Source: an uncultured Candidatus Saccharibacteria bacterium (GTDB taxonomy: Bacteria > Patescibacteriota > Doudnabacteria > UBA920). Taken from it: a DNA stretch of 64,000 bases. Under the pieces are notes generated by a model. It worked only from the letters and a program-made list of their open reading frames with translations. It searched no databases and was not told the DNA's origin. The position numbers and the translations under genes are program-made. Numbering within the stretch: position 1 is the stretch's first letter; every line of letters begins with the position of its first letter. This document shows, in pieces, positions 26,996 to 45,061 of the stretch. The DNA lies in assembly GCA_964600695.1 (NCBI GenBank), contig CAZRKK010000002.1, positions 5,354 through 69,353 of the forward strand, in the 5' to 3' direction.

Positions 26996-27017
26996 GGAAT
27001 TAATTTTTAGTTTAACC

Positions 27018-28238
27018 ATGAATGATTTAGAAACTCAACAATCAAATAATAATTCAGAAATCACCGGCCAAAAACTTGGTATCGTTGTGTTGGCTCTGGT
27101 GTTTGGTATTGTCGGAGGGTTATACGGATCATTAGATTTAGCTCGTCGACCATTTTTCCAAAAGATATTTGGTGGAAATAATTCAACCAATTCTGGATAC
27201 ACTCAAAATTTAGTTTTAAACGAACAATCAGCTACAACCGATGTTGTAAAAAAGGCTGGTCCAGCAGTGGTCTCGATAGTAGTTTCCAAAGATATTAGTC
27301 AATCACAGCAATTTAGGTTTGACCCATTTAACTTTTTTGGGCAGATGCCTAACCAAAATTTACCTAAAACACCAAATGTTCAAGAAGTGGGTGCTGGGAG
27401 TGGGTTTTTTGTTAGCAGTGATGGGATGATTATGACTAATAAGCATGTGGTCAGTGATACATCGGCAAAGTATTCTGTAATTACTAACGATGGAAAATCT
27501 TATGATGCCACGGTATTATCTTTAGACCCAACAAATGATATCGCCATTATAAAAATTGATATTAAAGACGCACCATTTTTGGAGTTAGCAGATTCTAGTC
27601 AATTGCAGTTAGGTCAACATGTTATAGCAATCGGAAATTCTTTAGGTCAATATCAAAACACTGTAACTACTGGAATTATCTCCGGTATTGGTAGAAGTAT
27701 TACCGCAGGTGGAGCAGGGGAATTGGAACAGCTAGATGGTGTTATCCAAACTGATGCTGCGATAAACTCTGGTAATTCTGGTGGGCCTTTACTTGATCTT
27801 GCTGGAAGAGTTGTGGGTATCAACACCGCTGTTGACCAACAGGGCCAATCTATTGGTTTTGCTTTACCTGCTAATGATGTAAAAATTGCTCTAGAGAGTT
27901 ATAAGAAAGACGGCAAGATTACTCGACCATATTTGGGAGTTAGATATTTTATGATCACTGATGCCATTGCGAAGACAGAAAAGTTACCTAAAGATTATGG
28001 TGCATTTATAGTCGGTGGTAATAATGCAGACGCCGCTGTTGTACCTGGTAGTCCAGCCGATCAAGCAGGTCTTAAAGAGAATGATATTATTTTAGAAATT
28101 GAAGGAAATAAGTTAACAGATAATTATTCATTATCTAGAGCAATGAAGAAGTATCGACCTAACGATCAGGTGAGTATAAAAATTTTTAGAGATGGTGAAG
28201 AAAAAAATGTAACAGTAACATTAGGCGAAACTAAATGA
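27018..28238 (+). CDS. htrA: HtrA/DegP-family periplasmic serine protease with a PDZ domain.
   Basis: Catalytic His (TNKHVV), Asp, and Ser in GNSGGPLLD. C-terminal PDZ-like (GAFIVGG...GLKENDIILEIEG). The ORF track starts at TTG 26979. The ATG at 27018 precedes the TM anchor. Confidence 0.85.
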   Translation: MNDLETQQSNNNSEITGQKLGIVVLALVFGIVGGLYGSLDLARRPFFQKIFGGNNSTNSGYTQNLVLNEQSATTDVVKKAGPAVVSIVVSKDISQSQQFRFDPFNFFGQMPNQNLPKTPNVQEVGAGSGFFVSSDGMIMTNKHVVSDTSAKYSVITNDGKSYDATVLSLDPTNDIAIIKIDIKDAPFLELADSSQLQLGQHVIAIGNSLGQYQNTVTTGIISGIGRSITAGGAGELEQLDGVIQTDAAINSGNSGGPLLDLAGRVVGINTAVDQQGQSIGFALPANDVKIALESYKKDGKITRPYLGVRYFMITDAIAKTEKLPKDYGAFIVGGNNADAAVVPGSPADQAGLKENDIILEIEGNKLTDNYSLSRAMKKYRPNDQVSIKIFRDGEEKNVTVTLGETK

Positions 28239-28639
28239 AGATATTAGGAATGGATTATGGTACTAAACGAATTGGCTTAGCTATTTCGGACGAGACTCAT
28301 ACTTTGGCTAGGGAATATGCCATTTGGCCAGCAGTAGAAGTTGATGATGAGTTCTGGAAAAAACTTGCTGAGCTTATAGAAGCCGAAGATATAGAAAAAA
28401 TTGTTCTAGGGATGCCACTGAATATGTCTGGTGAGTCAACTCAAAAATCTGAAGAGGTCCAAAAGTTTAATCAAGTTTTACAAGAGCAAGTAAGTGTACC
28501 AGTGGAATTAGTTGATGAAAGACTCTCGAGTGTGATGGCCGAAAACTTATCTGGGCAAATGTCCGGCCAGCACCATCAAATAGATAGCTTAGCCGCTCAA
28601 ATCTTCTTACAAAATTATTTAAACCAAAATAAAAAATAA
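28235..28639 (+). CDS. ruvX: Putative Holliday-junction resolvase / pre-16S rRNA nuclease YqgF (RuvX).
   Basis: MKILGMDYGTKRIGLAISD N-terminal RNase-H-fold motif. 4-nt ATGA overlap with htrA. Confidence 0.8.
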   Translation: MKILGMDYGTKRIGLAISDETHTLAREYAIWPAVEVDDEFWKKLAELIEAEDIEKIVLGMPLNMSGESTQKSEEVQKFNQVLQEQVSVPVELVDERLSSVMAENLSGQMSGQHHQIDSLAAQIFLQNYLNQNKK

Positions 28640-28641
28640 CA

Positions 28642-29664
28642 ATGTCACAATTTAGACGCAATCCAATCAATAAACAGTGGGTATTAATTGCCCCAGGTCG
28701 CGGCAAACGACCTGAGGATTTTCGAACATACAGTGTAAGTTATGGGCTTCCAGAGCTTGACCCGACTTGTATTTTTTGTCCAGGAAATGAAGGAAAAAAC
28801 CCAGACTTGTCAACTGATTCTAGTCGAATTCCAAATAATAAGGATTGGCAATTGCGTGTGATTCCTAATAAGTTCCGGTCGTTGGAGCAGACTAAAGTTT
28901 ATAGTAATAAGGATTTTTATGAATCTCGCTCTGGTTATGGTGATCACGAAGTAATTATTACTCGTAAACATAATGAACCACCGGCTTTGCAATCCGCAGT
29001 GCTTGTTCAACAAAGTTTGAAGTTATTCCAGGATCGGATTAAAGAAATTCAAAAAGACCCAGAGATAAATTATGTTCAAATATTCCACAATCATGGTCGT
29101 GATGCTGGGGCTTCGTTGGTTCATCCTCATTACCAAATTTTAGCGACTCCAATGGTGCCTCCTCATGTACATGAGGAACTTCGTGGTTGTTACCATCATT
29201 ATCAAGAGACTGGTAAGTGTTTGTATTGCGAGATAGTCAAAGAAGAGCTTAAGCATAAAGATCGAATCGTTTATGAAGATGATTATTTTGTAGTCATGTC
29301 TGCTTATGCATCTCGTAGTCCGTTTGAGACTTGGATTTTGCCAAAACGTCATCATTCCAGATTCGAAACAACTTCTGATGTGGAATTACTTCACTTAGCT
29401 CATGTCTTAAAAAAAGTACTCGGTACATTATATGTGAAGCTTGCTGACCCCCCTTTGAATTATTATATTCATACTATGCCTCGCTCGAGTGATAAGCATT
29501 TAGTGCACGAAGAGAAAAGTTACCACTGGCATTTAACAGTATTCCCACGTTTAACTATTTGGGCAGGCTTTGAATATGGAACAGGGATTCCTGTAAACCC
29601 AATGCCTCCAGAAGAGACAGCTAAGTTTTTAAGAGGGGATGCAAATCTTGGGAGGTCTAACTAA
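28642..29664 (+). CDS. GalT-family nucleotidyltransferase (galactose-1-phosphate uridylyltransferase-like / HIT-superfamily branch).
   Basis: N-terminal Cys motif CIFCPG and active-site HPHYQ (H-x-H-x-Q). Duplicated half-barrel length of 340 aa. Confidence 0.7.
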   Translation: MSQFRRNPINKQWVLIAPGRGKRPEDFRTYSVSYGLPELDPTCIFCPGNEGKNPDLSTDSSRIPNNKDWQLRVIPNKFRSLEQTKVYSNKDFYESRSGYGDHEVIITRKHNEPPALQSAVLVQQSLKLFQDRIKEIQKDPEINYVQIFHNHGRDAGASLVHPHYQILATPMVPPHVHEELRGCYHHYQETGKCLYCEIVKEELKHKDRIVYEDDYFVVMSAYASRSPFETWILPKRHHSRFETTSDVELLHLAHVLKKVLGTLYVKLADPPLNYYIHTMPRSSDKHLVHEEKSYHWHLTVFPRLTIWAGFEYGTGIPVNPMPPEETAKFLRGDANLGRSN

Positions 29665-30347
29665 TGTCAAAAATAATTATTGCTAACTGGAAGCTGAATC
29701 CTATGACTGCTCGCGAGGCTACAGATTTAGCAAGAAAAATTGATGTAGTTTCTAAATATGAAGTTGTGTTATGTCCACCAACTCCATTTTTGGGAGTGAT
29801 TGAATATATGCACAAAGGAGCTCAAGATGTCAGCTCTCAAATTAAAGGACCCTACACTGGTCAAATTTCGAGTGCCAACCTAGCAAGCCTTGGAGTGACT
29901 TATTGCATAGTTGGTCATAGTGAAAGAAGAGCTTTAGGCGAAACCGACACACAAATCAACGAAAAAATTCATGCTTTGCTAGATTATAAAATTACTCCAA
30001 TTTTGTGTGTTGGCTATGGCACAGCAGTGAATCAGGACGAACTAGAAGTTACAGATGTATTAGCTTCTCAACTCCGACAAGATTTAGATGAAGTTGATGT
30101 TAAAAAAGTTATTGTCGCTTACGAACCAGTATGGGCAATCGGTTCTGGAAGGCCAGCTACACCAGATCACGCCGAGCAAATTGCTTTGTATATCAGTACA
30201 AAGTTTGGAGTACGGTCTGTGATATATGGTGGTAGTGTAAATAGTACTAATAGCGCTAACTTTTTAAGTCAGCATAATGTTGGCGGTCTATTGGTTGGTG
30301 GAGCTTCATTGCTTGCCGACGATTTTAATAAAATTATTCAGTCATAA
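29664..30347 (+). CDS. tpiA: Triosephosphate isomerase.
   Basis: IIANWKLN, GHSERR, AYEPVWAIGSG, YGGSV motifs. TAATG overlap with the upstream gene. Confidence 0.9.
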   Translation: MSKIIIANWKLNPMTAREATDLARKIDVVSKYEVVLCPPTPFLGVIEYMHKGAQDVSSQIKGPYTGQISSANLASLGVTYCIVGHSERRALGETDTQINEKIHALLDYKITPILCVGYGTAVNQDELEVTDVLASQLRQDLDEVDVKKVIVAYEPVWAIGSGRPATPDHAEQIALYISTKFGVRSVIYGGSVNSTNSANFLSQHNVGGLLVGGASLLADDFNKIIQS

Positions 30348-30370
30348 CGCGGCTCAGCCGCAATACAAAA

Positions 30371-30841
30371 ATGATTTACATTGGAGCCGATCACGGCGGA
30401 TACAAATTAAAGGAACATATTAAAAAGTTTTTAGTTAAAGAGTGGAACCGAGAGTCTGGTGGCCAACAGCTCGAACTAAAGGATCTTGGAGCAAGCAAGT
30501 TTAAAGATGGGGATGATTACCCTGATTATGCTGCCAGAGTAGCTAAGCAGGTTTCCGCAAATCCTTTAGCTAATTTAGGAATCTTGATTTGTCGCAGTGG
30601 GCAAGGTGTATGCATAGTGGCTAATAAGTTTAAAGGGGTTCGAGCAGTATTAGTATGGAACGAACTCGAAGCCAAAATGAGTAGAAATGACGATATGAGC
30701 AACGTGTTATGTTTGCCAAGTGATTATATAGATACAAAGATGGCAGAAAAGATTGTTAAGGCGTGGCTCGAGACGCCATTTTCGACGGAGCAGAGGCATA
30801 TGCGACGTGTGAAGAAGATCAGTGCTTTAGAAAATAATTAG
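30371..30841 (+). CDS. rpiB: Ribose-5-phosphate isomerase B (RpiB/LacAB family).
   Basis: IGADHGGYKLKE, CRSGQGVCIVANKFKGVRA, QRHMRRV motifs. Confidence 0.85.
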   Translation: MIYIGADHGGYKLKEHIKKFLVKEWNRESGGQQLELKDLGASKFKDGDDYPDYAARVAKQVSANPLANLGILICRSGQGVCIVANKFKGVRAVLVWNELEAKMSRNDDMSNVLCLPSDYIDTKMAEKIVKAWLETPFSTEQRHMRRVKKISALENN

Positions 30842-30850
30842 AAAACATAA

Positions 30851-31489
30851 ATGCTTATTCCGGCAATATTAGAAAATAATAAAAAGAAATATTTAGAAAA
30901 TCTAAAAGCAGTTTTAGCATTGAAGAATATCAAGTCTATACAAATAGATTTTGCCGATGGGGAATTTGTGGCCACTAAAACTTTACCAATCGCCGAGATA
31001 GAACTTCCTGCAAGGTCTAAAATTTTGTTCGAAGCACATTTGATGGTTAAAGAACCCAAGGATTTTGTTTTGTATCAAAAGGCTGGGTTTAAAAAAATCA
31101 TCGTTCATTACGAAGCTTTTAAAAGTGAACTTGATTTAGAAGCAGCTATAGAAGAAATAAAAAAGTTAAAAATGATTCCTGCAATAGCCATTTCTCCAAC
31201 TAGTGAAATTTCTGTAATTCGTTATCATACTGATACAATCAAGGACTTCACTTTGTTGGCTGTGGTTCCGGGTAGGCAAGGACAAAAAATGTTACCAGAA
31301 ACTTTTGATCGACTTCGAGAATTAAGAGATCATGCCCCAGGTGCAAATATCGAGATAGATGGCGGAGTTGATGGTAAAAATATTGCTTCTTTAATAGACG
31401 CCGGCGCAACAGATTGCGTAGCAGGTTCAAGTTTACTAAGAGGTGATATTAAAGAGAATTATAAAGTGCTTATGGAGGCTTTAAAATAA
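30851..31489 (+). CDS. rpe: Ribulose-phosphate 3-epimerase-like TIM-barrel enzyme.
   Basis: IDFADGEFV, HLMV, VVPGRQGQKM, IDGGV...AGSSLL pattern matches the Rpe family. Confidence 0.75.
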   Translation: MLIPAILENNKKKYLENLKAVLALKNIKSIQIDFADGEFVATKTLPIAEIELPARSKILFEAHLMVKEPKDFVLYQKAGFKKIIVHYEAFKSELDLEAAIEEIKKLKMIPAIAISPTSEISVIRYHTDTIKDFTLLAVVPGRQGQKMLPETFDRLRELRDHAPGANIEIDGGVDGKNIASLIDAGATDCVAGSSLLRGDIKENYKVLMEALK

Positions 31490-32340
31490 TGTCAAAACTT
31501 TCATCAACAGATTTACAACTAACTGCTAATAAAATTCGAGAAGATATTATCAGTATGTTAGTGGAGGCGGGGAGTGGTCACAGCGCCGGACCTTTAGGTA
31601 TGGCTGATGTTTTCACTGCTTTGTATTTTGAAGTCATGAATATTAATCCTCATGACCCTAATTGGGAAGAACGTGATTGGTTAATTTTATCGTGTGGCCA
31701 TATTTGTCCAGTGTTGTACGCAACAATGTCTGAACGTGGCTATTTCCCAGCGTCAGAATTAAAATCGCTTCGCAAGCTTGGTACTCGTTTGCAAGGACAT
31801 CCTCATAACTTATCTTTACCTGGCATAGAAACAACTAGCGGACCCTTAGCACAGGGTGCTTCTCAGGCTGTGGGAGTAGCTTTAGCAATGCGGATGAGTG
31901 GTAAAAAGAATCGTGTTTATTTAGTGATGTCGGATGGTGAGCAAAATGAAGGTCAGATTTGGGAAGCTGTTATGTTGGCTGGCAAAGAAAAACTTCATAA
32001 TCTTACTGCCATTATAGACCGCAATAATATTCAAATTGATGGTTATACAGAAGATGTTATGCCTTTGGACAATTTGAAAGCAAAGTACGAAGCCTTTAAT
32101 TGGCACGTTATAGAAGTTGATGGACACAATATTCAGGCAGTGATTAATGCCTATCGTGAAGCAGAGGCGGTGTATGAAAAACCAACAGTCATTATTGCGC
32201 ATACCATTCCAGGGAAGGGCGTGGACTTTATGGAGGGTAAGTTTGAATGGCATGGTAAACCACCAAAAGCTGACGAAGCCAAATTAGCTCTGCAAGAGCT
32301 ACGTACATTGCAAGGAAAAATTAAAAGTGAACATGAATAA
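31489..32340 (+). CDS. Transketolase, N-terminal (TPP-binding) subunit of a split enzyme.
   Basis: GSGHSAGPLGMADV, GHPH, LVMSDGEQNEGQIWEA motifs. TAATG overlap with rpe. Confidence 0.85.
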   Translation: MSKLSSTDLQLTANKIREDIISMLVEAGSGHSAGPLGMADVFTALYFEVMNINPHDPNWEERDWLILSCGHICPVLYATMSERGYFPASELKSLRKLGTRLQGHPHNLSLPGIETTSGPLAQGASQAVGVALAMRMSGKKNRVYLVMSDGEQNEGQIWEAVMLAGKEKLHNLTAIIDRNNIQIDGYTEDVMPLDNLKAKYEAFNWHVIEVDGHNIQAVINAYREAEAVYEKPTVIIAHTIPGKGVDFMEGKFEWHGKPPKADEAKLALQELRTLQGKIKSEHE

Positions 32341-32367
32341 TTTTATTAATATAATTAACCAAAAATC

Positions 32368-34125
32368 ATGACAATTCTAATAGGGCTTATTGTAATAATA
32401 TTTTTAATTACTTTAAGCAGAAGAGTTTCTAAAATTGAAGATGCTCTTAAAATCAATCCTGCATTAGGTCGGGCTGTACAACAGCCAGTACCACAGCCAC
32501 AAACCGCACAACCATTACAAGTTGCTCAAACAGCAAAGGTTGCCCAAAAAGCTAGTGCTACTCAACCGGTTGTTGTTGAAACTAATCATCTTGATTCAAA
32601 ATCTTTTGTTAATGCCTTGCCAAAAATTGGGGTCATTGCTCTAGTATTTGGTTTAGCATTTTTCCTAAAATATGCGATTGATCAAGGATGGATTAGTGAA
32701 TCTTTGCGTTTGGGTTTGGGTGCAGTGGTTGGTGGATTGTTATTGGTTCTATTTTATTTATGGAAAGAAAAATATGCTAAGTATGCCTTAGTCTTGGCTG
32801 GTGGAGGATTAGCTATTTGGTATTTAACAATTTTTGCAGCAGTAGAAATGTATGCCATGTTGAGCATGAATGGTGGATTAATCATTTTGTCGATAGTTAC
32901 TATAATCGGTTTATTGCTGGCATATAAAACAAAGTCTCCGAGTTTATCAGCTTTGGCTTGGGGAGGCGCATTTTTATCTCCAATCATATTGTCGTTTAAT
33001 TCCAGTTCTTATAGTTTAATGTTGATTTATATCAGCATCGTCGTGTTGGGATTACTAACATCTATTGTTTATACGAAGTCTTACAAATTATTTGCACTTA
33101 TAATTGCTGGAACTGCCGTTAACTTATTATTCGGGTTGTTCGCAGGATTGTTCACAGAAGAATATTATATTAGAACTCTAATCTTTTTAATAATCCATCT
33201 ATGTGCTAATACGTTTGTAATTACTAATCTTATTCGATCCGATAAAGCAGAGAATAAAGAAATAAATCAAACAGAGTTCGGGCTTTTATTAGTTTTGATA
33301 TTTGCAATTTTTGTGTTGCCAACAGCGTTGATTGCATACTTTAAGTTTAATGATTACTCTACACTTATCATGACTGCTTTGGCTGTTTGGACTTTCCTAA
33401 TTTATGCATTTATTGATCGATTAGAGCTCACTAAGCTTAATTATTTGTTGTCTGGGTTTGGCACATCTCTTTTAGTAATTAGTGTGATTTGGCAGTTTGG
33501 TGATAATTCTCAAGTAGTTATGTTTTATATTCTGGGTTTGGTGGGGATTATCGTTGGTTATATTCAAAAACGAGCGGAACTTCGAGCGTGGGGAGTTTCT
33601 ACAGTTATGGTTGGTCTAGTCTCAGCTTGTTTGGTTAGTTATGGTTCTGTTCCACAGTTGATTGTCACTCAAAAATTTGGTCTCGAAATGCTCGGGTTGG
33701 TAGCATTGGGTGTCGCATATATTTTCTTTAAGGAAGATCAACTCTCAGAATTCGAACATGATATTCATTTAGCAATTCAGTATCTCATAGCTGGATTTGC
33801 ATGGTTCTTTATTTCTTGGGACTTGTATAACTACTATTCTGCTTTCGACCAAGTTAATCAAAGAAATCTATCCTTAAGTTTGTGGTGGTTGGTTTATGCA
33901 ACACTCTTACTTGGAGCTTCTGTTACTCACGTTCTTAAACCTTTAAGAAAAGTAGGTTTGTTGCTATTTGGTTTAGTAATTATCAAAGTGTTTCTTTATG
34001 ACGTGCAGAGTCTAGATATGGTTTATAGAATAATTTCATTTATCAGTTTAGGTGTAATTCTGTTGGTGGTCTCATTTATCTATCAACACAACAAAGAAAA
34101 AATTATCAAATATATTGAATCTTAA
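32368..34125 (+). CDS. Polytopic membrane protein (585 aa, at least 12 predicted TM), DUF2339-like. Inserted between the two transketolase subunit genes.
   Basis: Pro/Gln-rich linker after the first TM. FFLKYAIDQGWI motif. Many hydrophobic helices. Stop overlaps the tkt-C start (TAATG). Confidence 0.5.
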   Translation: MTILIGLIVIIFLITLSRRVSKIEDALKINPALGRAVQQPVPQPQTAQPLQVAQTAKVAQKASATQPVVVETNHLDSKSFVNALPKIGVIALVFGLAFFLKYAIDQGWISESLRLGLGAVVGGLLLVLFYLWKEKYAKYALVLAGGGLAIWYLTIFAAVEMYAMLSMNGGLIILSIVTIIGLLLAYKTKSPSLSALAWGGAFLSPIILSFNSSSYSLMLIYISIVVLGLLTSIVYTKSYKLFALIIAGTAVNLLFGLFAGLFTEEYYIRTLIFLIIHLCANTFVITNLIRSDKAENKEINQTEFGLLLVLIFAIFVLPTALIAYFKFNDYSTLIMTALAVWTFLIYAFIDRLELTKLNYLLSGFGTSLLVISVIWQFGDNSQVVMFYILGLVGIIVGYIQKRAELRAWGVSTVMVGLVSACLVSYGSVPQLIVTQKFGLEMLGLVALGVAYIFFKEDQLSEFEHDIHLAIQYLIAGFAWFFISWDLYNYYSAFDQVNQRNLSLSLWWLVYATLLLGASVTHVLKPLRKVGLLLFGLVIIKVFLYDVQSLDMVYRIISFISLGVILLVVSFIYQHNKEKIIKYIES

Positions 34126-35135
34126 TGTTTAACCCAACGCAAAAACTTAATCCCAAACTTAGCGTGATGAGCGCAAGCGATCTGGACAACCTAATAGAGC
34201 AAAAACCGACTCGGGATGGTTTTGGCGAAGCTTTGTTGCGTCTAGGTGAGCAAGACGAACGAATTGTTGTTCTAACCGGCGACTTAAAAGAAAGTACGCG
34301 CGTGCAAGCTTTTGCAGATAAATTTCCTGATAGATTTGTAGAATGTGGGGTTGCAGAACAAAATATGATGGGTGTGGCGGCAGGACTAGCGCTTGCAGGA
34401 AAAATCCCTTTTGCTGCTAGTTACGCTACTTTTAGCCCTGGACGTAATTGGGATCAATTTCGAGTCTCGGTTTGTTATAGCAAGGCTAATGTGAAGGTAA
34501 TAGGTGCTCATACAGGGGTTTCTGTGGGCCCTGACGGTGCAACTCATCAAGCTCTAGAAGATATAGCTATTACCCGTGTGCTTCCAAATTTAACTGTACT
34601 GCAACCAATCGACGCCATCGAAGCCTCAAAAGCAGTGATCGCGATGAGTGATATAGATGGGCCAGTGTATATTCGATTAACTAGAGAAAAAAGTCCTGTT
34701 ATTACAACGCCGGATTCTCCATTCGAAATTGGGAAAGCAAATATATTAAGAGATGGTACGGATGTAGCGATAATAGGGTGTGGCCCAATACTGTATAATG
34801 CTATTAAGGCCGCAGTAGAGTTAGAGAAACAAAATATTAGTGTTTTGATAATCAACAACCATACTATCAAGCCAATCGATAAAAATACTATTCTGTGGGC
34901 AGCTAAGTTAACTAAGGCGGTTGTGACAGTAGAAGAGCACCAAATAGATGGTGGCTTGGGAAGCGCAGTGGCAGAAGTCTTAGCCAGAAATTACCCTGTG
35001 CCTGTCGAGATGGTGGGGATGCCAAATACTTTTGGTGAAAGTGGAACCCCAGAAGAATTATTCGAAAAATATGGCATGGGTGTACAGTCTATAGTTAAGT
35101 CAATAAAGAAAGCGATATCTAGAAAACAAAGTTAA
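34125..35135 (+). CDS. Transketolase, C-terminal (pyrimidine-binding plus C-terminal domain) subunit.
   Basis: FGEALLRLGEQDERIVVLTGDL, ECGVAEQNMMGVAAGLA motifs. Confidence 0.85.
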   Translation: MFNPTQKLNPKLSVMSASDLDNLIEQKPTRDGFGEALLRLGEQDERIVVLTGDLKESTRVQAFADKFPDRFVECGVAEQNMMGVAAGLALAGKIPFAASYATFSPGRNWDQFRVSVCYSKANVKVIGAHTGVSVGPDGATHQALEDIAITRVLPNLTVLQPIDAIEASKAVIAMSDIDGPVYIRLTREKSPVITTPDSPFEIGKANILRDGTDVAIIGCGPILYNAIKAAVELEKQNISVLIINNHTIKPIDKNTILWAAKLTKAVVTVEEHQIDGGLGSAVAEVLARNYPVPVEMVGMPNTFGESGTPEELFEKYGMGVQSIVKSIKKAISRKQS

Positions 35136-35155
35136 AGAAATTATTAAAATAAATT

Positions 35156-36181
35156 ATGCCGAAAACCAAATTTGATTTAATCGCCATTGGTGATCCTACA
35201 ATAGATACTTTTTTGTTGGTCGATGATATTGAAGTAAAAAAAATTAACGGACAACTAAAAGCTATTATAAGCTGGGGTGATAAACTGCCAGTGCAAAAAT
35301 TTTATCGTACAGTTGCTGGGAATGCTGCTAATAATGCTGTTGGAAGTAGTCGATTGGGTCTTAAAACGGCTTTCTATACAGTTCTCGCTCATGATGCAGG
35401 TGGAAGAGAGATTATTCACAAAATGCAAAAAGAAAAAGTTGTTACAGATTATATTGTCATCGATGACAAGCACCCAACTAACGCATCTACAGTACTAAGC
35501 CATAACGGCGAACGGACTATCTTTGTATATCATGAGCATCGAAAATATGTTTTGCCAAAATTGGCACCAGCAAAATGGGTTTACTTAACAAGCTTGGGTG
35601 ATGGCTTCGAAAAAATTTATAAAGATTTGGCTAAGTATTTAGATAAGAATAAAGTCGAGCTAGCTTTTAATCCGGGAACATTTCAACTTCGTAAAGGCCC
35701 TAAGTTTAATAAATTAATGCTCGAAAGAACTTCTGTATTGTCATTAAATAAAGAGGAAGCGCAAAGCTGGGTAGGGAATAGTGAAGATATCGAAGTCTTG
35801 GCGAAAAAATTACAGAAACTTGGGCCAAAGTGTGTAGTAATTACAGATGGTCGTAAAGGTGCTTATAGTTATAGTAACGAAGGTTATTTTTATATCACAG
35901 AATTTCCTGGACCACGCATAGATGCAACAGGGGCAGGTGATAGTTTTACCACTGCGTATGTCGCAGCTTTGGCAAGTGGGCAATCTCATAAGGAGGCCTT
36001 ACGGTGGGGTCCTGTGAATGCTGCTAGTGTCGTTAATAAAATTGGTCCACAGGAAGGCCTGCTCACTAAGAAGGAACTAGCAGGAAAACTTTCTAGAAGT
36101 AAAAGTTATCAGGCCACAGAAATGAAAGACGAAAAAATTAAATCTAAGATTGCTGCTATGGTAGGAAAGATGAAGGATTAA
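35156..36181 (+). CDS. PfkB-family carbohydrate/sugar-phosphate kinase (ribokinase superfamily).
   Basis: N-terminal glycine motif IAIGDPTIDT and C-terminal DATGAGDSFTTAYV anion-hole motif. Confidence 0.75.
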   Translation: MPKTKFDLIAIGDPTIDTFLLVDDIEVKKINGQLKAIISWGDKLPVQKFYRTVAGNAANNAVGSSRLGLKTAFYTVLAHDAGGREIIHKMQKEKVVTDYIVIDDKHPTNASTVLSHNGERTIFVYHEHRKYVLPKLAPAKWVYLTSLGDGFEKIYKDLAKYLDKNKVELAFNPGTFQLRKGPKFNKLMLERTSVLSLNKEEAQSWVGNSEDIEVLAKKLQKLGPKCVVITDGRKGAYSYSNEGYFYITEFPGPRIDATGAGDSFTTAYVAALASGQSHKEALRWGPVNAASVVNKIGPQEGLLTKKELAGKLSRSKSYQATEMKDEKIKSKIAAMVGKMKD

Positions 36182-36182
36182 A

Positions 36183-37049
36183 ATGTTAGTTCATATCAAA
36201 GAACTTTTCAACTCAGAAGTTAGGGGAAAGTTTGCTTACCCAGCCTTCAATACTATGAATCTCGAAATAACTCGAGGTATTATTGAAGCTGCCGAGGAAT
36301 TAAATACTCCAATTATTATAGAGACAAGTGAAGGAGCCATTAAGTATGCTGGGCTTGAGCCTATGTTCGAAATAATTGCTAGCCTTGCAATTAAAGCCAA
36401 GATTCCAGTAGCTTTGCATATGGATCATGGTAAAGATATGGAACAGTTGCAGAGAGGTATTGAACTCGGATATTCTTCAGTGATGATTGATCATTCTTCT
36501 TTACCTATTAATGAGAATATAAAGAACACCAAAGCAATGGTTGAATTTGCACATAAGGAAGGCGCTTGGGTTCAGGGTGAAGTGGGCCGTATCCGTGGAA
36601 GTGAAGACTGGGTGTCTGTATCTGAGAGTGAAAGTTTGCTGACTGAGCCCCAAGAAGCTTTAAAATTTTGGCAGGACACCAATGTTGATAGTTTAGCTTG
36701 TTCTTTTGGTACAATTCACGGTATTATTAAGATGAGTGGAAAGGCTGAAGCTAATGTAGACATCGACCGCATTAAACAGGTGTCTGAACTAGTTCCAGTT
36801 CCTTTAGTGTTACATGGTGCAAGCGGTGTACCTGATGATGTGATCGCCAATGCAATTAAAGCCGGCATCAGTATTATTAATATTGATACGGAGTTAAGGA
36901 TAGGGTTCACTAAAAATTTAAGACAGGCGTTATTAGAGCATCCTGATGAAGTTGACCCAAGAAAATATTTAACACCGGCAATTGAAGGTGTTAAGGATGC
37001 AGCAAAAAAGAAGTTATTAGCATTTAAAACAATTAATCAACTTAATTAA
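36183..37049 (+). CDS. fba: Class II fructose-bisphosphate aldolase.
   Basis: ALHMDHG, zinc-ligand His residues, GEVGRIRGSED motifs. Confidence 0.85.
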   Translation: MLVHIKELFNSEVRGKFAYPAFNTMNLEITRGIIEAAEELNTPIIIETSEGAIKYAGLEPMFEIIASLAIKAKIPVALHMDHGKDMEQLQRGIELGYSSVMIDHSSLPINENIKNTKAMVEFAHKEGAWVQGEVGRIRGSEDWVSVSESESLLTEPQEALKFWQDTNVDSLACSFGTIHGIIKMSGKAEANVDIDRIKQVSELVPVPLVLHGASGVPDDVIANAIKAGISIINIDTELRIGFTKNLRQALLEHPDEVDPRKYLTPAIEGVKDAAKKKLLAFKTINQLN

Positions 37050-37050
37050 T

Positions 37051-37284
37051 ATGGGAATGGCTGGTTCCGGTTTATCGGACAAAAATGTAAGGTTACGTTT
37101 TTTAATCTATATTTTCATGGGGGTAATTGCTCTCGGTTCTGTGATGTATTGGAAAGTTAAACTTTTTGAGAATTCAGAATATGTAGAACTGACTTTCGGT
37201 ACTCATAAAGAAAAAGATCCATCACTCTTACAATCAGAAAATTATCAAATCGAAACATTCGAGACTTCACCAAGTGTAAAGTAG
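37051..37284 (+). CDS. Small hypothetical membrane protein (77 aa).
   Basis: One TM (FLIYIFMGVIALGSVMYW). Start codon abuts the fba stop. Confidence 0.3.
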   Translation: MGMAGSGLSDKNVRLRFLIYIFMGVIALGSVMYWKVKLFENSEYVELTFGTHKEKDPSLLQSENYQIETFETSPSVK

Positions 37285-37334
37285 TTATACGTAGCAACGC
37301 AAATAGACCGTAGTATTGAAATAAAAATAATAAA

Positions 37335-38366
37335 ATGCAAAATAAAATTAAAATTGGTATCAATGGATTTGGTCGTATAGGGCGACAGGCTTTTAAAATT
37401 GCTTTAGATAAACCAGAAATCGAGATTGTGGCGATAAATGATTTAACTAGCCCAGCAAGTTTGGCTCATCTTTTAAAATACGATAGTAACTATGGGAAGT
37501 TTGATCATACTATAGAGTCAAACGAAACTCATTTAATTGTAAATGGTAAAAGTTATTTAGTGACTGCAGAAAAAGATCCCGCTAACTTGCCTTGGGGCAA
37601 GCTTGGTGTAGATGTAGTTATCGAAAGTACAGGTAGATTTACAAGTGGAGAAAAGGCTAGTGGTCATTTAGCTGCGGGCGCGAAGAGGGTAATTATTTCT
37701 GCTCCAGCTAAAGATGAAGGTATTACTAAGACATATGTTTTAGGGGTAAACGAAGATGCTTATACCGACGAGGCTATCATTAGCAATGCCTCTTGCACCA
37801 CAAACTGTATTGCTCCTGTAGCGGCTGTTATGCATGCAAAGTTTGGAATCGAGAAAGCTATGATGACTACCATTCATAGTTACACAGCCGAACAAAACTT
37901 AGTAGATGGTCCTCCTCCAGGAGGGCACTCCGAAGATTTTCGTAGAGCACGAGCAGCAGCGGTAAATATTGTACCAACTACCACTGGGGCAGCTATTTCT
38001 GCCACAGAAACAATTCCAGAATTAAAAGGTTTGTTTGATGGTATGGCTATTCGCGTGCCTACTCCTGTTGGAAGTTTAACCGATTTTACCATGTTGTTAA
38101 AAAAAGATGTTACGGTCGAGGAAGTTAATCAAGCGTTTATAGATGCAACTACTCATCCTTTATACAAAGGCGTGTTAGTAGTAACAGATGAACAATTGGT
38201 TTCTTCTGATATCGTTGGTAACCCTGCTTCGGCTATTGTAGATTTATCTTTAACTAAAGTTACTGCCGGTAATTTTGTAAAAGTAATTGCTTGGTATGAT
38301 AATGAATTTGGTTATTCCAATAGACTTGTCGAACAAGTAATTTTAGTTGGCCAGAGTATTAAGTAG
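37335..38366 (+). CDS. gap: Glyceraldehyde-3-phosphate dehydrogenase.
   Basis: INGFGRIGR, ASCTTNCIAPV motifs. Confidence 0.95.
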   Translation: MQNKIKIGINGFGRIGRQAFKIALDKPEIEIVAINDLTSPASLAHLLKYDSNYGKFDHTIESNETHLIVNGKSYLVTAEKDPANLPWGKLGVDVVIESTGRFTSGEKASGHLAAGAKRVIISAPAKDEGITKTYVLGVNEDAYTDEAIISNASCTTNCIAPVAAVMHAKFGIEKAMMTTIHSYTAEQNLVDGPPPGGHSEDFRRARAAAVNIVPTTTGAAISATETIPELKGLFDGMAIRVPTPVGSLTDFTMLLKKDVTVEEVNQAFIDATTHPLYKGVLVVTDEQLVSSDIVGNPASAIVDLSLTKVTAGNFVKVIAWYDNEFGYSNRLVEQVILVGQSIK

Positions 38367-38373
38367 GTAAAGT

Positions 38374-38404
38374 GTAAAAAAAAAGAGCAGAAATTTCTGC
38401 TCTG
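38374..38404 (-). terminator. Intrinsic terminator for a minus-strand micro-gene. On the minus strand the hairpin gagcagaaa/tttctgctc is followed by a U-run.
   Basis: The plus-strand A-run at 38375-38384 becomes a T-run on the minus strand directly after the hairpin. Confidence 0.45.
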
Positions 38405-38422
38405 GATGAGGTGTAATTTGTT

Positions 38423-38509
38423 TTAGTTAGGGAGAAAGCTTATCCCTACGGCAAGAATTACAATCCCAAATAAGTAAGCGATGATTAAAATTTTAATATC
38501 TTTTCTCAT
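38423..38509 (-). CDS. Candidate 28-aa hydrophobic micro-protein (MRKDIKILIIAYLFGIVILAVGISFLPN) on the minus strand between gap and pgk.
   Basis: SD GGAGG 6 nt upstream of the ATG (minus strand). Single TM helix. Own intrinsic terminator. Confidence 0.4.
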   Translation of the reverse strand: MRKDIKILIIAYLFGIVILAVGISFLPN

Positions 38510-38574
38510 TTGTCCTCCAGTCGATCGATGTAATAATTGATGTAGCACTAGTATTAAATCATAAATTATCAATT

Positions 38575-39822
38575 TTGTCAATAGAAAGCTTAACAAATAT
38601 TCTTAAAAAAGATGCAAAATCTCTCAAAAATAAGAGAGTTTTGTTAAGATTAGATTTAAACGAAGAGATATCCACAACTGGTAAGTTGCTAGATAATTTT
38701 AGGATTCAGTCGGCAATACCTACAATAAAAATTTTGCGTTCTGCTGGTGCAAAAATCATTATCGTCTCTCATTTGGGTCGGCCAGAAGGGAAGTGGGGTA
38801 CTAGCTTGTCCTTAAAACCAATCGCTAATTGTTTAGCAGAGATGTTGGATTATAAGTACGTAGAGACTGATGGTAAGTTACCGACATATTCAATTCCACA
38901 TCTCGTACTTTTTAAAAATGATATTACCAAGCCTGAGTCTTTAGAATTTCTAAATGATCAGTCAGCTCAGGATATTGTGATGTTAGAAAATATTCGCTTT
39001 TACGAAGGCGAAGATCTAAACTCAGATATTTTTTCGGAACAACTTTCTAAGACAGCTGATTTATTTGTTAATGATGCGTTTAGTGTTTGTCATAGAGCAG
39101 CTGCTTCTGTAGTTGGGGTTACTAAATACCTACCTAGTAGTGCAGGGCCCTTACTAGAAAAAGAAATTAAAGCACTAGAGTTCATGCTTTCTAATAAAGT
39201 TGCAAAACCATTTGTTCTTATGATGGGCGGAATTAAGATTGCCGACAAAGAACAAACTTTGCGTAACCTTGGTAAGCGAGCCGACAAGATTTTACTTGCC
39301 GGTGGTTTGGCTAATTTGTTTTTAAAAGCTCAGGGTTATGATGTTGGTGTTGATGTTGCAGATAAAAAAAGCCTGGCTTTAGCCAAAGAGTTATTACTAA
39401 ATTTTAAATCAAAACTAGTATTACCTTCTGATGTTGCAGTTAAAACTATCAAAGCCCCAAATCAGGCACAAGCTAAACAGTTATCAGAAATTGTGGCTAC
39501 AGATAAACTTTATGATATTGGTCCGCAATCAATTTTGGCTTTTAGCAAGATATTAAAAACTGCTGGAACAATTTGTTGGAATGGCCCACTAGGGTATTTT
39601 GAGGATAAGTCTTTTCGGGCGGGGACAATGGCTATCTCCAATGTTATAGGTGGTTTAGGTAAACGCAAAGCTTACGTATTGGTAGGTGGTGGTGAAACCG
39701 TTGCCTCTGTTAGGTTGGCTGGCCAGTTAGAACACATTGACCATGTGTCTACAGGTGGTGGTGCTATGCTAGAATTTTTAGCCGGTGCTAAACTTCCTGG
39801 AATTGAAGCCTTAAGAAAATAA
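38575..39822 (+). CDS. pgk: Phosphoglycerate kinase.
   Basis: KRVLLRLDLN, SHLGRPEG motifs. Apparent TTG start, with no in-frame ATG before the conserved N-terminus. Confidence 0.9.
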   Translation: MSIESLTNILKKDAKSLKNKRVLLRLDLNEEISTTGKLLDNFRIQSAIPTIKILRSAGAKIIIVSHLGRPEGKWGTSLSLKPIANCLAEMLDYKYVETDGKLPTYSIPHLVLFKNDITKPESLEFLNDQSAQDIVMLENIRFYEGEDLNSDIFSEQLSKTADLFVNDAFSVCHRAAASVVGVTKYLPSSAGPLLEKEIKALEFMLSNKVAKPFVLMMGGIKIADKEQTLRNLGKRADKILLAGGLANLFLKAQGYDVGVDVADKKSLALAKELLLNFKSKLVLPSDVAVKTIKAPNQAQAKQLSEIVATDKLYDIGPQSILAFSKILKTAGTICWNGPLGYFEDKSFRAGTMAISNVIGGLGKRKAYVLVGGGETVASVRLAGQLEHIDHVSTGGGAMLEFLAGAKLPGIEALRK

Positions 39823-39833
39823 TTTTTCTCTAT

Positions 39834-41087
39834 ATGATTTCCAAAATTAGCAAAATTACTGCTCGCCAAATTTTAGATAGCAGAGGCAATCCAACCTTAG
39901 AGGTTAGTGTGTATGCCGGTAAATCTTTTGCTGTGGCGTCTGTACCAAGTGGAGCCTCGACAGGAAGTCACGAGGCAGTAGAATTACGCGATGGCGGCAA
40001 AGCTTGGCGCGGTTTAGGGGTGCAAAAAGCAGTAAAAAACGTCGAGAAAATCATCACTCCCTTATTAAAAAATATTTCGGTTTTTGACCAAATGGAAATT
40101 GATAGACTAATGTTGGCTAAAGATAATACACCCGACAAGCGACGCTTAGGAGCCAATGCAATATTAGGAGTATCGTTGGCGGTATCACGCTTAGCTGCGC
40201 AATTAAAAAATCAAACTTTATATAATTATTTAGCTAAGACCTATCAGTTTAAAAAACCTTCCTCTCTACCAACACCTTTACTAAATGTTTTAAATGGAGG
40301 ACTTCATGCTGATTCTGGCACAGACGTGCAGGAGTTCTTCTTTATTCCAAAGCGGGGAAAATTTGCCCAAAAGTTAGAAATTGGTAGCCAAGCTATATCT
40401 GCATTAAAACAACTAATAAAAAAGAAAAAACTTTCTGTTGGTTTAGGTGACGAAGGTGGATTTGCTCCTAAGGTTCATTCTAACGAGAAGGCTTTACGTT
40501 TATTACTGGCTGCTGTGCATAAAGCTAAGTTTCGTTTAGGGAAAGATATCGCCTTAGGTATCGATGCTGCTGCCAGTGAATTTTTTGATGCCGAGAGAGA
40601 AGTCTATAATTTTAGTTCTGATAACAAACATTACAAACCTGCAAGTGTTTATAAGTTATATGCAAGTTGGGTAAAACGATTTGGTTTAGAAATAATCGAA
40701 GACGGATGCGCCGAGGATGATTTTGCGGGTTGGCAAAAGTTAACTTCAGCTTTAGGGGATAATATAACTCTGGTAGGTGATGATTTGTTTGTAACAAACC
40801 CTGCACGACTACAGGCTGGAATAATTTCTGGAATAGCTAACAGTGTACTAATTAAACCAAACCAAATTGGATCGGTGTCGGAAACAATGGCAACGATTAA
40901 GTTGGCCAAAAAGTTTAATTATAAAGTTGTCATTTCACATCGAAGCGGGGAAACGGCCGATGATTTTATTGCCGATTTAGCAGTTGCGGTTGGCGCGGAT
41001 TATATCAAGGCAGGTAGCTTAGCTCGAGGGGAGCGTTTAGCAAAGTATAATCGATTATTAAAAATTGCCGACGAACTTAAGCAGTAG
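39834..41087 (+). CDS. eno: Enolase.
   Basis: ILDSRGNPTLEV, SHRSGETAD motifs. Confidence 0.95.
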   Translation: MISKISKITARQILDSRGNPTLEVSVYAGKSFAVASVPSGASTGSHEAVELRDGGKAWRGLGVQKAVKNVEKIITPLLKNISVFDQMEIDRLMLAKDNTPDKRRLGANAILGVSLAVSRLAAQLKNQTLYNYLAKTYQFKKPSSLPTPLLNVLNGGLHADSGTDVQEFFFIPKRGKFAQKLEIGSQAISALKQLIKKKKLSVGLGDEGGFAPKVHSNEKALRLLLAAVHKAKFRLGKDIALGIDAAASEFFDAEREVYNFSSDNKHYKPASVYKLYASWVKRFGLEIIEDGCAEDDFAGWQKLTSALGDNITLVGDDLFVTNPARLQAGIISGIANSVLIKPNQIGSVSETMATIKLAKKFNYKVVISHRSGETADDFIADLAVAVGADYIKAGSLARGERLAKYNRLLKIADELKQ

Positions 41088-41115
41088 AGCTTAGTTACGG
41101 GAACTTAATTTATAA

Positions 41116-42735
41116 ATGAAAAGAGTTTACAAAAAAATTGTCTTGGTGGTCTTAGATGGATTTGGTGTGGCTACATACAGTCACGGTAATGCCATTGCTT
41201 TGGCTAATCCAGAGGCGATGAACGATCTCATTGCTCACTATCCATCGTTAACTTTATTGGCTTCTGGTCCAGTGGTTGGTTTGCCGTGGGGTGAAGTAGG
41301 TAACTCTGAAGTTGGTCATTTGAATATGGGAGCTGGTAGGGTTGTTGGCCAAGATTTGCCGCGTATTAATGCGGCAATTTCGGACCATTCATTTTTAAGC
41401 AACCCAGTCTTTTTAGAAGCAATTGAGCATGCTCGAAAAAATAACTCAAAACTACATTTAGTTGGGTTGGTGAGTGACGGTGGTGTTCACAGTAGTTGTG
41501 AGCATTTATACGCGCTATTGGGTGTGGCAGCCGAGCAACAGTTTAATGAGGTTTATATCCATATGTTTACTGATGGACGTGATACAGGGCCAAAAGTCGC
41601 CTTAGAAAGCATTGCTAAACTCAAAGACACAATTGCGAAATTAGGTGTAGGGAAAATTGCTACAATCGCTGGGCGATTTTATGGCATGGACCGTGGTAAG
41701 CATTGGGATCAAACTGAAGCTATGTATAGAGCAATGGTTAAAGGCGCAGGTGCTGCTGCGGACTCTGCAGAAGATGCAATTTTAAATAACTATAATCAAA
41801 ATATTTTTGATGAAATGATTCCACCTACGGTAATTGTTTCTAGGGGTGAAGATGGAAGTATTAAACCTACTGGTGTTGTTTCTAGTAATGATGCAATAAT
41901 ATTTTTTAATTTTCGATCTGATCGAGCTATTCAGTTAACTAAAGCATTTGTGGTCCCACAGGATATGGATATCGAAAAAAAGCACCCTCCTTTGGATAAT
42001 TTATATTTTGCCACTATGACTGAGTATCTTAGTAACTTGCCGGTTCATGTGGCTTTTGCTCAACAGAATCTAAAAAATAATTTGGCCGAAGCTTTATCTA
42101 CCAGAGGAATTCGTCAGTATCACATTGCGGAAAGCGAAAAATTTGCTCACGTCACTTCATTCTTCAATGGGGGAGTAAGTGAGCCGTTTGCGGGTGAGGA
42201 GCGTACTATTGTGCAAAGCCCTATCAATGATAAGAATTATGTGGATCGACCTCAGATGTCGGGAATCGAAGTTGCAGACAAGTTAGTTCATAAGATTATG
42301 GAAGAAGACTTTCAATTCTATTTAGCTAACTTTGCAAACTCAGATATGGTTGGTCATACAGGGAATATTACTGCTGGGATTAAGGCTGTGCAGTATCTAG
42401 ATCGTTTCTTAGAACAAATTCGTAAGGCTGTGCTAAGTGTTGATGGTTTATTAATCATTAGTGCCGACCATGGTAACATCGAAGAAATGATCGACCGTAA
42501 GACTGGTGATATAAACACAGAGCATAGTACTAGCCCAGTTCCATTTATTGCCATGGCTAAAGACTTAGCTTTTCCTGTAGCTAAGAATCGTAACTATTTA
42601 TCATTATCCAGTATGATGCCTTCTGGGGTAGTTTCTGATATTGCGCCAACCATCCTAGAATTTTTTGGTATTCCTAAGCCAGCAGAGATGACTTCTGTAA
42701 GTTTAGTGGATCAAATCGAGGCCCAGCTAAAATAG
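41116..42735 (+). CDS. gpmI: 2,3-bisphosphoglycerate-independent phosphoglycerate mutase.
   Basis: VLVVLDGFG, SEVGHLNMGAGR, ADHGN motifs. Confidence 0.9.
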   Translation: MKRVYKKIVLVVLDGFGVATYSHGNAIALANPEAMNDLIAHYPSLTLLASGPVVGLPWGEVGNSEVGHLNMGAGRVVGQDLPRINAAISDHSFLSNPVFLEAIEHARKNNSKLHLVGLVSDGGVHSSCEHLYALLGVAAEQQFNEVYIHMFTDGRDTGPKVALESIAKLKDTIAKLGVGKIATIAGRFYGMDRGKHWDQTEAMYRAMVKGAGAAADSAEDAILNNYNQNIFDEMIPPTVIVSRGEDGSIKPTGVVSSNDAIIFFNFRSDRAIQLTKAFVVPQDMDIEKKHPPLDNLYFATMTEYLSNLPVHVAFAQQNLKNNLAEALSTRGIRQYHIAESEKFAHVTSFFNGGVSEPFAGEERTIVQSPINDKNYVDRPQMSGIEVADKLVHKIMEEDFQFYLANFANSDMVGHTGNITAGIKAVQYLDRFLEQIRKAVLSVDGLLIISADHGNIEEMIDRKTGDINTEHSTSPVPFIAMAKDLAFPVAKNRNYLSLSSMMPSGVVSDIAPTILEFFGIPKPAEMTSVSLVDQIEAQLK

Positions 42736-42771
42736 TGTTGTCGAGTTGGGAGGTTGTGTTATGATGCCTAT

Positions 42772-45058: not shown

Positions 45059-45061
45059 GTT

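Follow-up and report, generated by a model that had tools for sequence, protein, structure and literature searches.

The stretch analysed here, referred to as the window, comprises 64,000 nucleotides (nt) of contig CAZRKK010000002.1 from an uncultured bacterium placed among the Doudnabacteria. It carries an array of 14 open reading frames (ORFs) for sugar-phosphate metabolism that sit precisely at positions 28642-42735 of the + strand, in the order galT-like, tpiA, rpiB, rpe, tktN, a DUF2339 gene, tktC, pfkB, fba, a 77-aa ORF, gap, pgk, eno and gpmI (Table 1). ORF families were called with Pfam and NCBIfam, which agree on all the enzymes named in an earlier reading of the same DNA made from its letters alone (the sequence-only reading). 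The genes for non-oxidative pentose-phosphate pathway (PPP) enzymes and for lower glycolysis are physically together, as stated there, and the gap-pgk-tpiA order is indeed rearranged, tpiA being displaced and adjoining the galT-like gene in all 59 related loci that could be assessed.

Table 1. Features of the sugar-phosphate gene array, of the gap|pgk spacer and of the flanking syntenic genes; fractions are related loci carrying the gene among those assessable.
Feature	Position	Strand	Support and remarks
GalT/HIT-family nucleotidyl-transferase/phosphorylase (galT-like)	28642..29664	+	PF01087, PF02744, DUF4921; 52/52
Triose-phosphate isomerase, tpiA, bacterial type, 227 aa	29664..30347	+	PF00121 210 bits; 59/59
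Ribose-5-phosphate isomerase B, RpiB	30371..30841	+	PF02502; TIGR00689 and NF004051 above cutoffs; 59/59
Ribulose-phosphate 3-epimerase, Rpe, divergent	30851..31489	+	PF00834 107 bits; NCBIfam rpe models below cutoffs; 61/61
Transketolase N-terminal (thiamine diphosphate-binding) half, tktN	31489..32340	+	PF00456 205 bits; tktN and tktC in 56/63
DUF2339 polytopic membrane protein	32368..34125	+	Accessory gene, fills the slot tktN|tktC
Transketolase C-terminal (pyrimidine-binding and C) half, tktC	34125..35135	+	PF02779, PF02780
PfkB-family sugar kinase, ribokinase-like fold	35156..36181	+	PF00294 137 bits; anchor of the conserved block
Class II ketose-bisphosphate (fructose-bisphosphate) aldolase, fba	36183..37049	+	PF01116 300 bits; 33/78
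77-aa single-pass membrane protein	37051..37284	+	No Pfam/NCBIfam match; 51/78 by tblastn
Glyceraldehyde-3-phosphate dehydrogenase, gap	37335..38366	+	PF00044, PF02800; 76/76
Intrinsic terminator of the antisense mini-gene	38375..38403	-	Stem AGAGCAGA/TCTGCTCT, then T8-9
Antisense 28-codon ORF, small hydrophobic peptide MRKDIKILIIAYLFGIVILAVGISFLPN	38423..38509	-	GGAGGA 3 nt 5' of ATG
Divergent spacer between antisense gene and pgk	38510..38574	+	Promoter-like TTGTCC-16-(TG)AATAAT, pattern match only
Phosphoglycerate kinase, pgk, TTG start	38575..39822	+	PF00162 377 bits; 69/69
Enolase, eno, variable array member	39834..41087	+	PF03952, PF00113; 50/69
2,3-bisphosphoglycerate-independent phosphoglycerate mutase, iPGM/gpmI	41116..42735	+	PF06415, PF01676; 63/63
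Syntenic non-metabolic neighbours on the upstream side, for an HtrA-like protease and RuvX	26979..28639	+	Spacing of 2 nt from RuvX to the galT-like gene
Downstream syntenic recJ and RNase H (rnhA), then terminator-like site	42754..45115	+	

Most neighbours within the array lie close together. Three stop/start overlaps of the form TAATG were read from the sequence (galT/tpiA, rpe/tktN and DUF2339/tktC), pfkB/fba and fba/77-aa ORF are separated by 1 nt each, and 9 of the 13 junctions measure 23 nt or less; the spacing from gap to pgk is 208 nt, and the other junctions that are neither overlapping nor 1 nt wide span 9-50 nt. Of four TAATG-type junctions announced by the sequence-only reading, three are true overlaps and the fourth, pfkB/fba, is a gap of 1 nt and not of 2; the tight coupling that it described fails between gap and pgk. 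Shine-Dalgarno sequences are absent from most + strand genes of the cluster, GGAGG being present at tpiA, at the downstream recJ and at the minus-strand mini-gene described below. The tpiA/rpiB spacer (30348-30370) contains a GC-rich hairpin, GCGGC-TCA-GCCGC (-8.6 kcal/mol, z = -2.9), with no U-tail, which may serve in processing or stability or may be there by chance.

The gap|pgk spacer is occupied by a convergent gene, a 28-codon minus-strand ORF with the start region GGAGGAcaaATG, followed by an intrinsic terminator (stem and T-run at 38403-38384), the end of which is 9 nt away from the stop codon of gap. This terminator is the best minus-strand terminator-like structure of the scanned region (-11.6 kcal/mol, z = -6.4; none of 200 shuffles folded as well). 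Because the same palindrome has no U-tail when read on the + strand, the hairpin looks like the terminator of the antisense gene and not of gap. The earlier statement that everything lies on one strand is correct for the 14 ORFs and overlooked this minus-strand ORF at 38423-38509, so that an opposite-strand gene does lie inside the co-oriented interval. The antisense ORF is considered real because it is conserved in relatives. The closest genome (L005, ~97% identical) retains it with 23 of 28 residues identical and five conservative substitutions, and L006, the PfkB of which is 84% identical, has a 27-codon homologue, MRSETKILILANIIGLLILVIGLNLCP, with its own GGAGGAG and a differently sequenced terminator at the same place. 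One or two analogous antisense ORFs for small membrane proteins were found at gap|pgk in L008-L013, L016, L018, L021, L036 and L041, mostly with a GGAGG-type ribosome-binding site on the 5' side and a terminator on the 3' side, and sometimes two in tandem; in all, such mini-genes are found at this junction in 14 or more related species. What is conserved among relatives is the position of gene and terminator, not the sequence of the hairpin. On the other side of the spacer, a short A/T-rich block just 5' of the pgk start is conserved in L005 and L006, and the TTG start itself in L005-L007. Read-through from gap on the + strand would, going by the sequence, yield an RNA fully complementary to the transcript of the antisense mini-gene.

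Conservation of the array was assessed in 80 related loci, one genome per species, centred on PfkB homologues 58-97% identical and searched by tblastn with all window proteins. Presence counts use only loci that reach the slot concerned, and pfkB, being the anchor, is present in all of them by design. The shared order is x544-htrA-ruvX-galT-tpiA-rpiB-rpe-tktN-[DUF2339]-tktC-pfkB-[fba]-[77-aa]-gap-[variable]-pgk-[eno]-gpmI-recJ-rnhA-PEGA(-), with the block always on one strand, and the backbone genes occur in 100% of assessable loci, as a conserved synteny block of Doudnabacteria. The galT-like gene, tpiA, rpiB, rpe, gap, pgk and gpmI are invariant, and the paired tkt halves, eno, fba and the 77-aa ORF are variable (Table 1; for the 77-aa ORF the count is 56/78 when the slot itself is scanned for ORFs). 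DUF2339 fills the tktN|tktC slot in 14 of 57 loci and the rpe|pfkB position in three loci that have no tkt. The invariant backbone comprises the GalT-like enzyme, presumably acting on nucleoside diphosphate (NDP)-sugars, triose-phosphate isomerase (TIM), RpiB, Rpe, the PfkB kinase, glyceraldehyde-3-phosphate dehydrogenase (GAPDH), phosphoglycerate kinase (PGK) and iPGM, with variable slots that here hold the split transketolase, DUF2339, the class II aldolase, the 77-aa membrane protein and enolase. Judged from these gene orders, the clustering is far beyond chance and the co-localisation is both real and ancient.

The relatives also carry unrelated co-oriented genes inserted at almost every junction of the block, most often at gap|pgk, which is the loosest junction of the clade (median 291 nt; more than 250 nt in 39 of 76 loci). 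Labelled by sequence motif, the inserts include type IV pilin-like proteins between tktC and pfkB, PD-(D/E)xK GxxExxY-like (~130 aa), GIY-YIG (~97 aa), DUF559-like and 23S-rRNA-IVP four-helix proteins, HicAB-like pairs and an ABC1-type kinase. Insert-bearing slots in L008-L083 include gap|pgk, galT|tpiA, tktC|pfkB and rpe|tktN. In other species the conserved block is a landing pad for small genes, which may be selfish or accessory; the copy in the window is comparatively clean. Since its junctions tolerate insertions, the block does not behave as expected of an obligatorily coupled operon. Losses are seen as well: in L046, L055, L060, L063, L079, L081 and L082 both tkt halves and fba are absent at the locus while rpiB, rpe, pfkB and gap are kept, and three of these seven carry DUF2339 instead. 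This hints at another way out of the pentose-phosphate pool in the species lacking tkt, such as a phosphoketolase encoded elsewhere.

The transcriptional organisation of the array was considered together with its surroundings. Distinct operon boundaries were not found: ruvX lies 2 nt from the galT-like gene and gpmI 18 nt from recJ, htrA and ruvX overlap by 4 nt, and recJ and rnhA overlap as well; these junctions with non-metabolic genes are no looser than those inside the array. The galT and gpmI ends of the proposed operon are functional labels and not transcriptional boundaries. In a scan of 27000-46500 the highest-ranked + strand terminator-like site was located at 45091-45115, after rnhA, and the other + strand sites were weaker and inside ORFs. 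Because positions 280-45058 form one uninterrupted + strand run (~45 kb, an extreme leading-strand bias), the shared orientation is a property of the replichore and not of the cluster, and the tight same-strand packing would reflect the leading-strand, compact architecture of the genome as a whole. Intergenic distances have a median of 11 nt in the cluster versus 27 nt elsewhere in the + run, a difference that is not significant (Mann-Whitney p = 0.065). Scans of the whole window with Rfam (at the gathering threshold) and for tRNAs gave no match and no riboswitch or leader element.

The sequence-only reading had placed all 14 genes in one transcription unit, that is, a single dedicated operon from the galT-like gene to gpmI with one promoter and translational coupling throughout, and had named internal promoters or terminators as what would tell against it. 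The co-orientation of the 14 genes, the short junctions and the three TAATG overlaps agree with such an operon, as do the lack, inside the cluster, of any + strand terminator-like site equal in strength to that at 45091 and a gap-pgk spacer of 60 nt or less in 19 of 76 relatives. Against it stand the 208-nt spacer with an oppositely oriented gene, complete with ribosome-binding site and terminator and kept among relatives, which in structural terms is an internal element of the kind named; the arbitrary boundaries, ruvX and recJ adjoining closely and being syntenic in relatives; the unrelated genes inserted at nearly all junctions elsewhere; and a packing not significantly tighter than that of the flanks. 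With gap split from pgk and the outer limits indistinct, one transcription unit is not supported and the dedicated 14-gene operon is regarded as improbable. The array is instead read, with a probability of roughly 0.7, as a class-wide conserved, co-oriented synteny block of genes for the metabolism of sugar phosphates. Transcription would take place in at least two + strand units, one running through ruvX and the galT-like gene to gap and the other from pgk through gpmI to recJ and rnhA, parted by the convergent/divergent mini-gene. Several observations weigh against this reading. Read-through across the mini-gene is possible because its hairpin has no U-tail on the + strand, and long polycistronic transcripts across it may exist, the best + strand terminator being at 45091 and the rest weak. 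Promoter-like matches show no enrichment relative to shuffled sequence (65 vs 58.4), and no promoter motif is conserved 5' of gap or pgk across relatives beyond A/T-rich sequence and the short block common to the three closest genomes. In addition, the absences of tkt, fba and eno refer to the locus only, and copies elsewhere in those genomes are possible.

As to metabolism, a Pfam scan of the window ORFs (most, not all, of those of at least 90 aa) gave no pyk, pfkA, pgi, zwf, gnd or tal, which bears out the earlier observation that pyruvate kinase, PfkA and oxidative-PPP genes are missing from the cluster. The non-oxidative PPP is itself incomplete in the window, a point that had been missed: Rpi, Rpe and a split transketolase (Tkt) are present and no transaldolase family match was obtained among the scanned ORFs. 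The proposal of a reduced, scavenging metabolism is in line with the gene content, which fits the picture, without phosphofructokinase (PFK), published for the Candidate Phyla Radiation (CPR) (PMC7304191, PMC7143001). In this scheme scavenged pentoses or sugar phosphates would enter by way of the PfkB kinase, and possibly also through the NDP-sugar phosphorylase-like enzyme; RpiB, Rpe and Tkt would interconvert pentose phosphates and deliver glyceraldehyde 3-phosphate (GAP); and TIM, GAPDH, PGK, iPGM and enolase would carry triose phosphate to phosphoenolpyruvate, with substrate-level ATP formation at PGK. Because no transaldolase was found in the window, the pair formed by PfkB and the fructose-bisphosphate aldolase (FBA) may also close the PPP via sedoheptulose 1,7-bisphosphate.

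The kinase belongs to the PfkB family (PF00294 at 137 bits against a cutoff of 25.8, with NxxE and GAGD motifs), and its relatives are 58-100% identical among the matches listed. The kinase is exceptionally conserved: across 77 sequences its intact catalytic motifs, N198..E201 and G259-A-G-D262, show no variation, and 104 positions overall are invariant, alike in loci with and without fba; no group-specific substitutions separate loci with fba or tkt from those without. The gene is retained where fba (45/78) or tkt (7/63) is missing. PfkB of L079 and L080 was considered as a pseudogene and this was rejected, the apparent stops being the natural stop and an assembly N-run. The best sequence matches in the PDB are an IolC-like kinase, a fructokinase, YdjH and ribokinases. 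The AlphaFold2 model (predicted local distance difference test score of 89) has ribokinases and the Methanocaldococcus jannaschii nucleoside kinase as its closest Foldseek matches, with no Pfk-2-, 1-PFK- or LacC-type enzyme in the top 50. Given this affinity in hidden Markov model (HMM) searches and in fold, and the independence from tkt and fba, a ribokinase-like entry kinase for pentoses or other sugars is tentatively suggested as the most likely role. Two results count against it. No curated equivalog cutoff is attained, including those for ribokinase (TIGR02152, the best NCBIfam match, 112.5 vs 299.65 bits; NF008353, 79.8 vs 341). At the sugar-contact positions of Escherichia coli RbsK, which we take to be Lys43 and Asn14, a manual alignment places Asn56 and Thr15.

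Alternatively, PfkB could be a ketose-phosphate kinase that replaces transaldolase together with the class II aldolase, sedoheptulose 7-phosphate (S7P) and ATP giving sedoheptulose 1,7-bisphosphate (SBP), which is then cleaved to erythrose 4-phosphate and dihydroxyacetone phosphate (DHAP). The same pair may also supply the PFK step missing from CPR, from fructose 6-phosphate (F6P) through fructose 1,6-bisphosphate (FBP) to DHAP and GAP, with TIM funnelling DHAP onward. The gene order tktC-pfkB-fba is suggestive here, with 1 nt between pfkB and fba and fba directly 3' of pfkB in 33 of 33 fba-bearing loci, as is the absence of transaldolase and PfkA from the scanned ORFs. Among the curated NCBIfam models the aldolase exceeds the cutoff only with the generic one for ketose-bisphosphate aldolases (TIGR00167, 280 vs 215.6 bits), the FBA equivalogs staying below cutoff (310 vs 343 and 311 vs 423), and its best PDB matches are class II FBAs; its substrate may be FBP, TBP or SBP. 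In cellulolytic clostridia, experiments have established that the SBP pathway stands in for transaldolase (PMC7029132), and a CPR survey that reports having checked ROK-family proteins and ADP-dependent kinases as PFK alternatives does not have the PfkB family among those mentioned (PMC7304191). Several points speak against this reading: the kinase keeps the same 104 invariant residues although fba is missing at the locus in 45 of 78 cases and tkt in 7 of 63; HMM and fold group it with ribokinase, nucleoside kinase, IolC and 2-keto-3-deoxygluconate kinases; the Pfk-2, 1-PFK and tagatose-6-phosphate (LacC-type) kinase models give only 17-61 bits (TIGR03168 61.5 vs 216.4, TIGR03828 58.5 vs 292, NF007632 17.6 vs 353); and the clostridial enzyme is a pyrophosphate (PPi)-dependent PFK of the PfkA family. 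A ketose-phosphate kinase is therefore held to be a somewhat unlikely alternative to the entry kinase. Its widest form is less probable still and appears doubtful: PfkB as the missing CPR phosphorylation step, an ATP-dependent S7P/F6P kinase which with the aldolase and TIM would give a route from pentose phosphates to triose phosphates independent of transaldolase and PfkA, with the 77-aa, 28-aa and DUF2339 membrane proteins perhaps connecting this route with the membrane or with uptake.

The GalT-like enzyme, with visible CxxC and HPH-x-Q motifs, passes TIGR00209 (126 bits, cutoff 102) and falls short of the uridylyltransferase equivalog NF008724 (143 vs 448). In the PDB it matches 1z84 best, with 212 bits over residues 3-331, the score with E. 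coli GalT being 89 bits. The protein of 1z84, Arabidopsis At5g18200, acts as an ADP-glucose phosphorylase according to the passage of PMC6329318 that cites McCoy et al. (2006). The comparison is between a plant and a bacterial enzyme, and the NCBIfam galT model is still passed; neither of the Leloir-pathway partners galK and galE was found among the scanned window ORFs, so that the gene has no such neighbours. An NDP-sugar phosphorylase that would release sugar 1-phosphate with phosphate, in a scavenging role, is plausible.

The DUF2339 gene differs from the rest of the array in its distribution. In L005 just 2 nt separate the stop of tktN from the start of tktC (GAATAAtaATG), and exactly there the window has a 1.79-kb insertion that ends in the TAATG overlap. 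The gene is thus a presence/absence polymorphism (window 32341-34127 versus L005:8964-8970) between loci with flanking proteins ~97% identical and with tktN stop and tktC start intact in both. The ten next-closest species after L005 also lack it; more distant species have 26-51% identical DUF2339 proteins in the same slot, a 67% match being a truncated gene. Lateral acquisition was considered and rejected as a conclusion, identities of 26-67% giving no direction (gain versus loss). A promoter-like TGAACA-16-TATAAT (pattern match) lies 5' of the gene at 32328-32355. DUF2339 could be the importer of pentoses, nucleosides or sugar phosphates for the cluster, translationally coupled to tktC for that reason: it stands in the tktN|tktC slot with a TAATG overlap, and recurs there, or at rpe|pfkB where tkt is missing, in the proportions given above. 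It is dispensable, though, being absent from the ~97% identical relative and the ten next-closest species; its model matches nothing but generic helical repeats among solved structures, the matches listed including no known fold of a transporter; a more remote homologue stands in an unrelated context beside DUF3999; and the family has no annotation beyond DUF in Pfam or NCBIfam, an exact look-up of the protein returning no record. An importer is highly unlikely on this evidence. DUF2339 is an accessory membrane protein, and nothing supports a transporter role.

The 77-aa protein is of a different kind. An ORF scan of the slot found a small membrane ORF directly 5' of gap in the 56 loci mentioned, nearly all sharing one motif, ...GsGvxDxNxRLRF-TM-YWR...EY.E, where TM is the transmembrane segment (consensus ...G(S/T)G(L/V)xDxNxRLRF-TM-YWR...(S/A)(E/D)Y(V/Q)E), and the family, seen in at least 55 of 78 species, occurs with or without fba. 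It is a clade-specific conserved small-protein family.

The wider window has a GC content of ~38% and a positive GC skew throughout, and the closest homologues of PfkB, the aldolase and DUF2339 come from metagenome-assembled genomes labelled Candidatus Doudnabacteria or Patescibacteria, which marks the organism as a Doudnabacteria-like member of the CPR (Patescibacteria). Contigs nearly identical to this one are present in SRR31893918, SRR28822690, SRR12404957 and DRR623197. The + strand run encodes ribosomal proteins, SecY, a type IV secretion system coupling-like ATPase, DnaX, HtrA, RuvX, the 14 genes of the array, RecJ and RNase H, and not until 45062-46360 does a convincing minus-strand gene of normal size appear, a PEGA/beta-propeller-like ORF. 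An 852-aa ORF (13910-16468) just downstream of the ribosomal-protein/SecY region resembles TrwB/TraG-type type IV coupling proteins. Neither a 1204-aa ORF (18192-21806) nor a 544-aa ORF (25361-26995) has a Pfam match; the latter is syntenic with the block in relatives.

CPR bacteria lack PFK, hexokinase and often transaldolase, which leaves open how carbon passes through their upper glycolysis (PMC7304191). The array supplies a list of candidates, namely the PfkB kinase, an NDP-sugar phosphorylase-like enzyme coupled to TIM and a small membrane protein beside GAPDH, and it shows that, within one class, the locus can do without FBA, enolase and transketolase. The kinase/aldolase hypothesis, along with the small membrane proteins that are conserved, deserves most attention. 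A literature search for a description of the array in Doudnabacteria or Patescibacteria found none. The metabolic meaning of the array largely restates published CPR reconstructions, and as genome organisation it is ordinary, a conserved metabolic cluster in a compact, strand-biased genome.

Among known systems, the antisense peptide resembles the products of type I toxin or regulatory micro-protein genes. With type I toxin-like peptides encoded antisense to neighbours it shares a small size (28 aa), a basic N-terminus and one transmembrane segment, and its gene has a strong ribosome-binding site and a terminator of its own; unlike in those systems, no antitoxin RNA was identified, and no homology to a described toxin family was found, no test aimed at it having been made. 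For the glycolytic genes the nearest parallel is the operon cggR-gapA-pgk-tpiA-pgm-eno of Bacillus and other Firmicutes. The gapA operon of Bacillus subtilis is cited in PMC6079084, which misprints pgk as pykA. The array shares with it the co-oriented, adjacent gap, pgk, iPGM and eno genes. It differs in having no CggR-type regulator, in the position of tpiA ~7 kb upstream beside the galT-like gene, in the order gap-pgk-eno-gpmI, where eno and gpmI are swapped, in the antisense gene that interrupts gap-pgk, and in being joined to genes of the PPP, of a PfkB kinase and of membrane proteins.

Across CPR, TIM, GAPDH and PGK occur almost everywhere, the distribution of FBA and enolase is patchy and PFK is largely absent (Jaffe et al., 2020, PMC7304191), a pattern matched by the invariant (TIM, GAPDH, PGK) and variable (FBA, enolase) sets of the array. 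As in descriptions of CPR glycolysis that does without PFK and uses a shunt through the non-oxidative PPP, there is no PfkA, hexokinase or oxidative PPP (PMC7304191, PMC7143001); these papers give the presence and absence of genes, and not the 14-gene order, the small membrane-protein genes or the antisense gene. In Candidatus Chazhemtobacterium transaldolase is missing too and an aldolase gene lies 3' of the tkt genes in one operon (PMC7143001); that aldolase is of class I, whereas the one in the array is of class II and is preceded by the PfkB kinase. The SBP pathway of clostridia (Koendjbiharie et al., 2020, PMC7029132) relies on a PPi-dependent PFK of the PfkA family with measured S7P activity, while the kinase of the array is a ribokinase-like member of the PfkB family known from sequence; the likeness lies in the context, in which transaldolase is lacking and a candidate kinase and an FBP/SBP-type aldolase stand beside transketolase.

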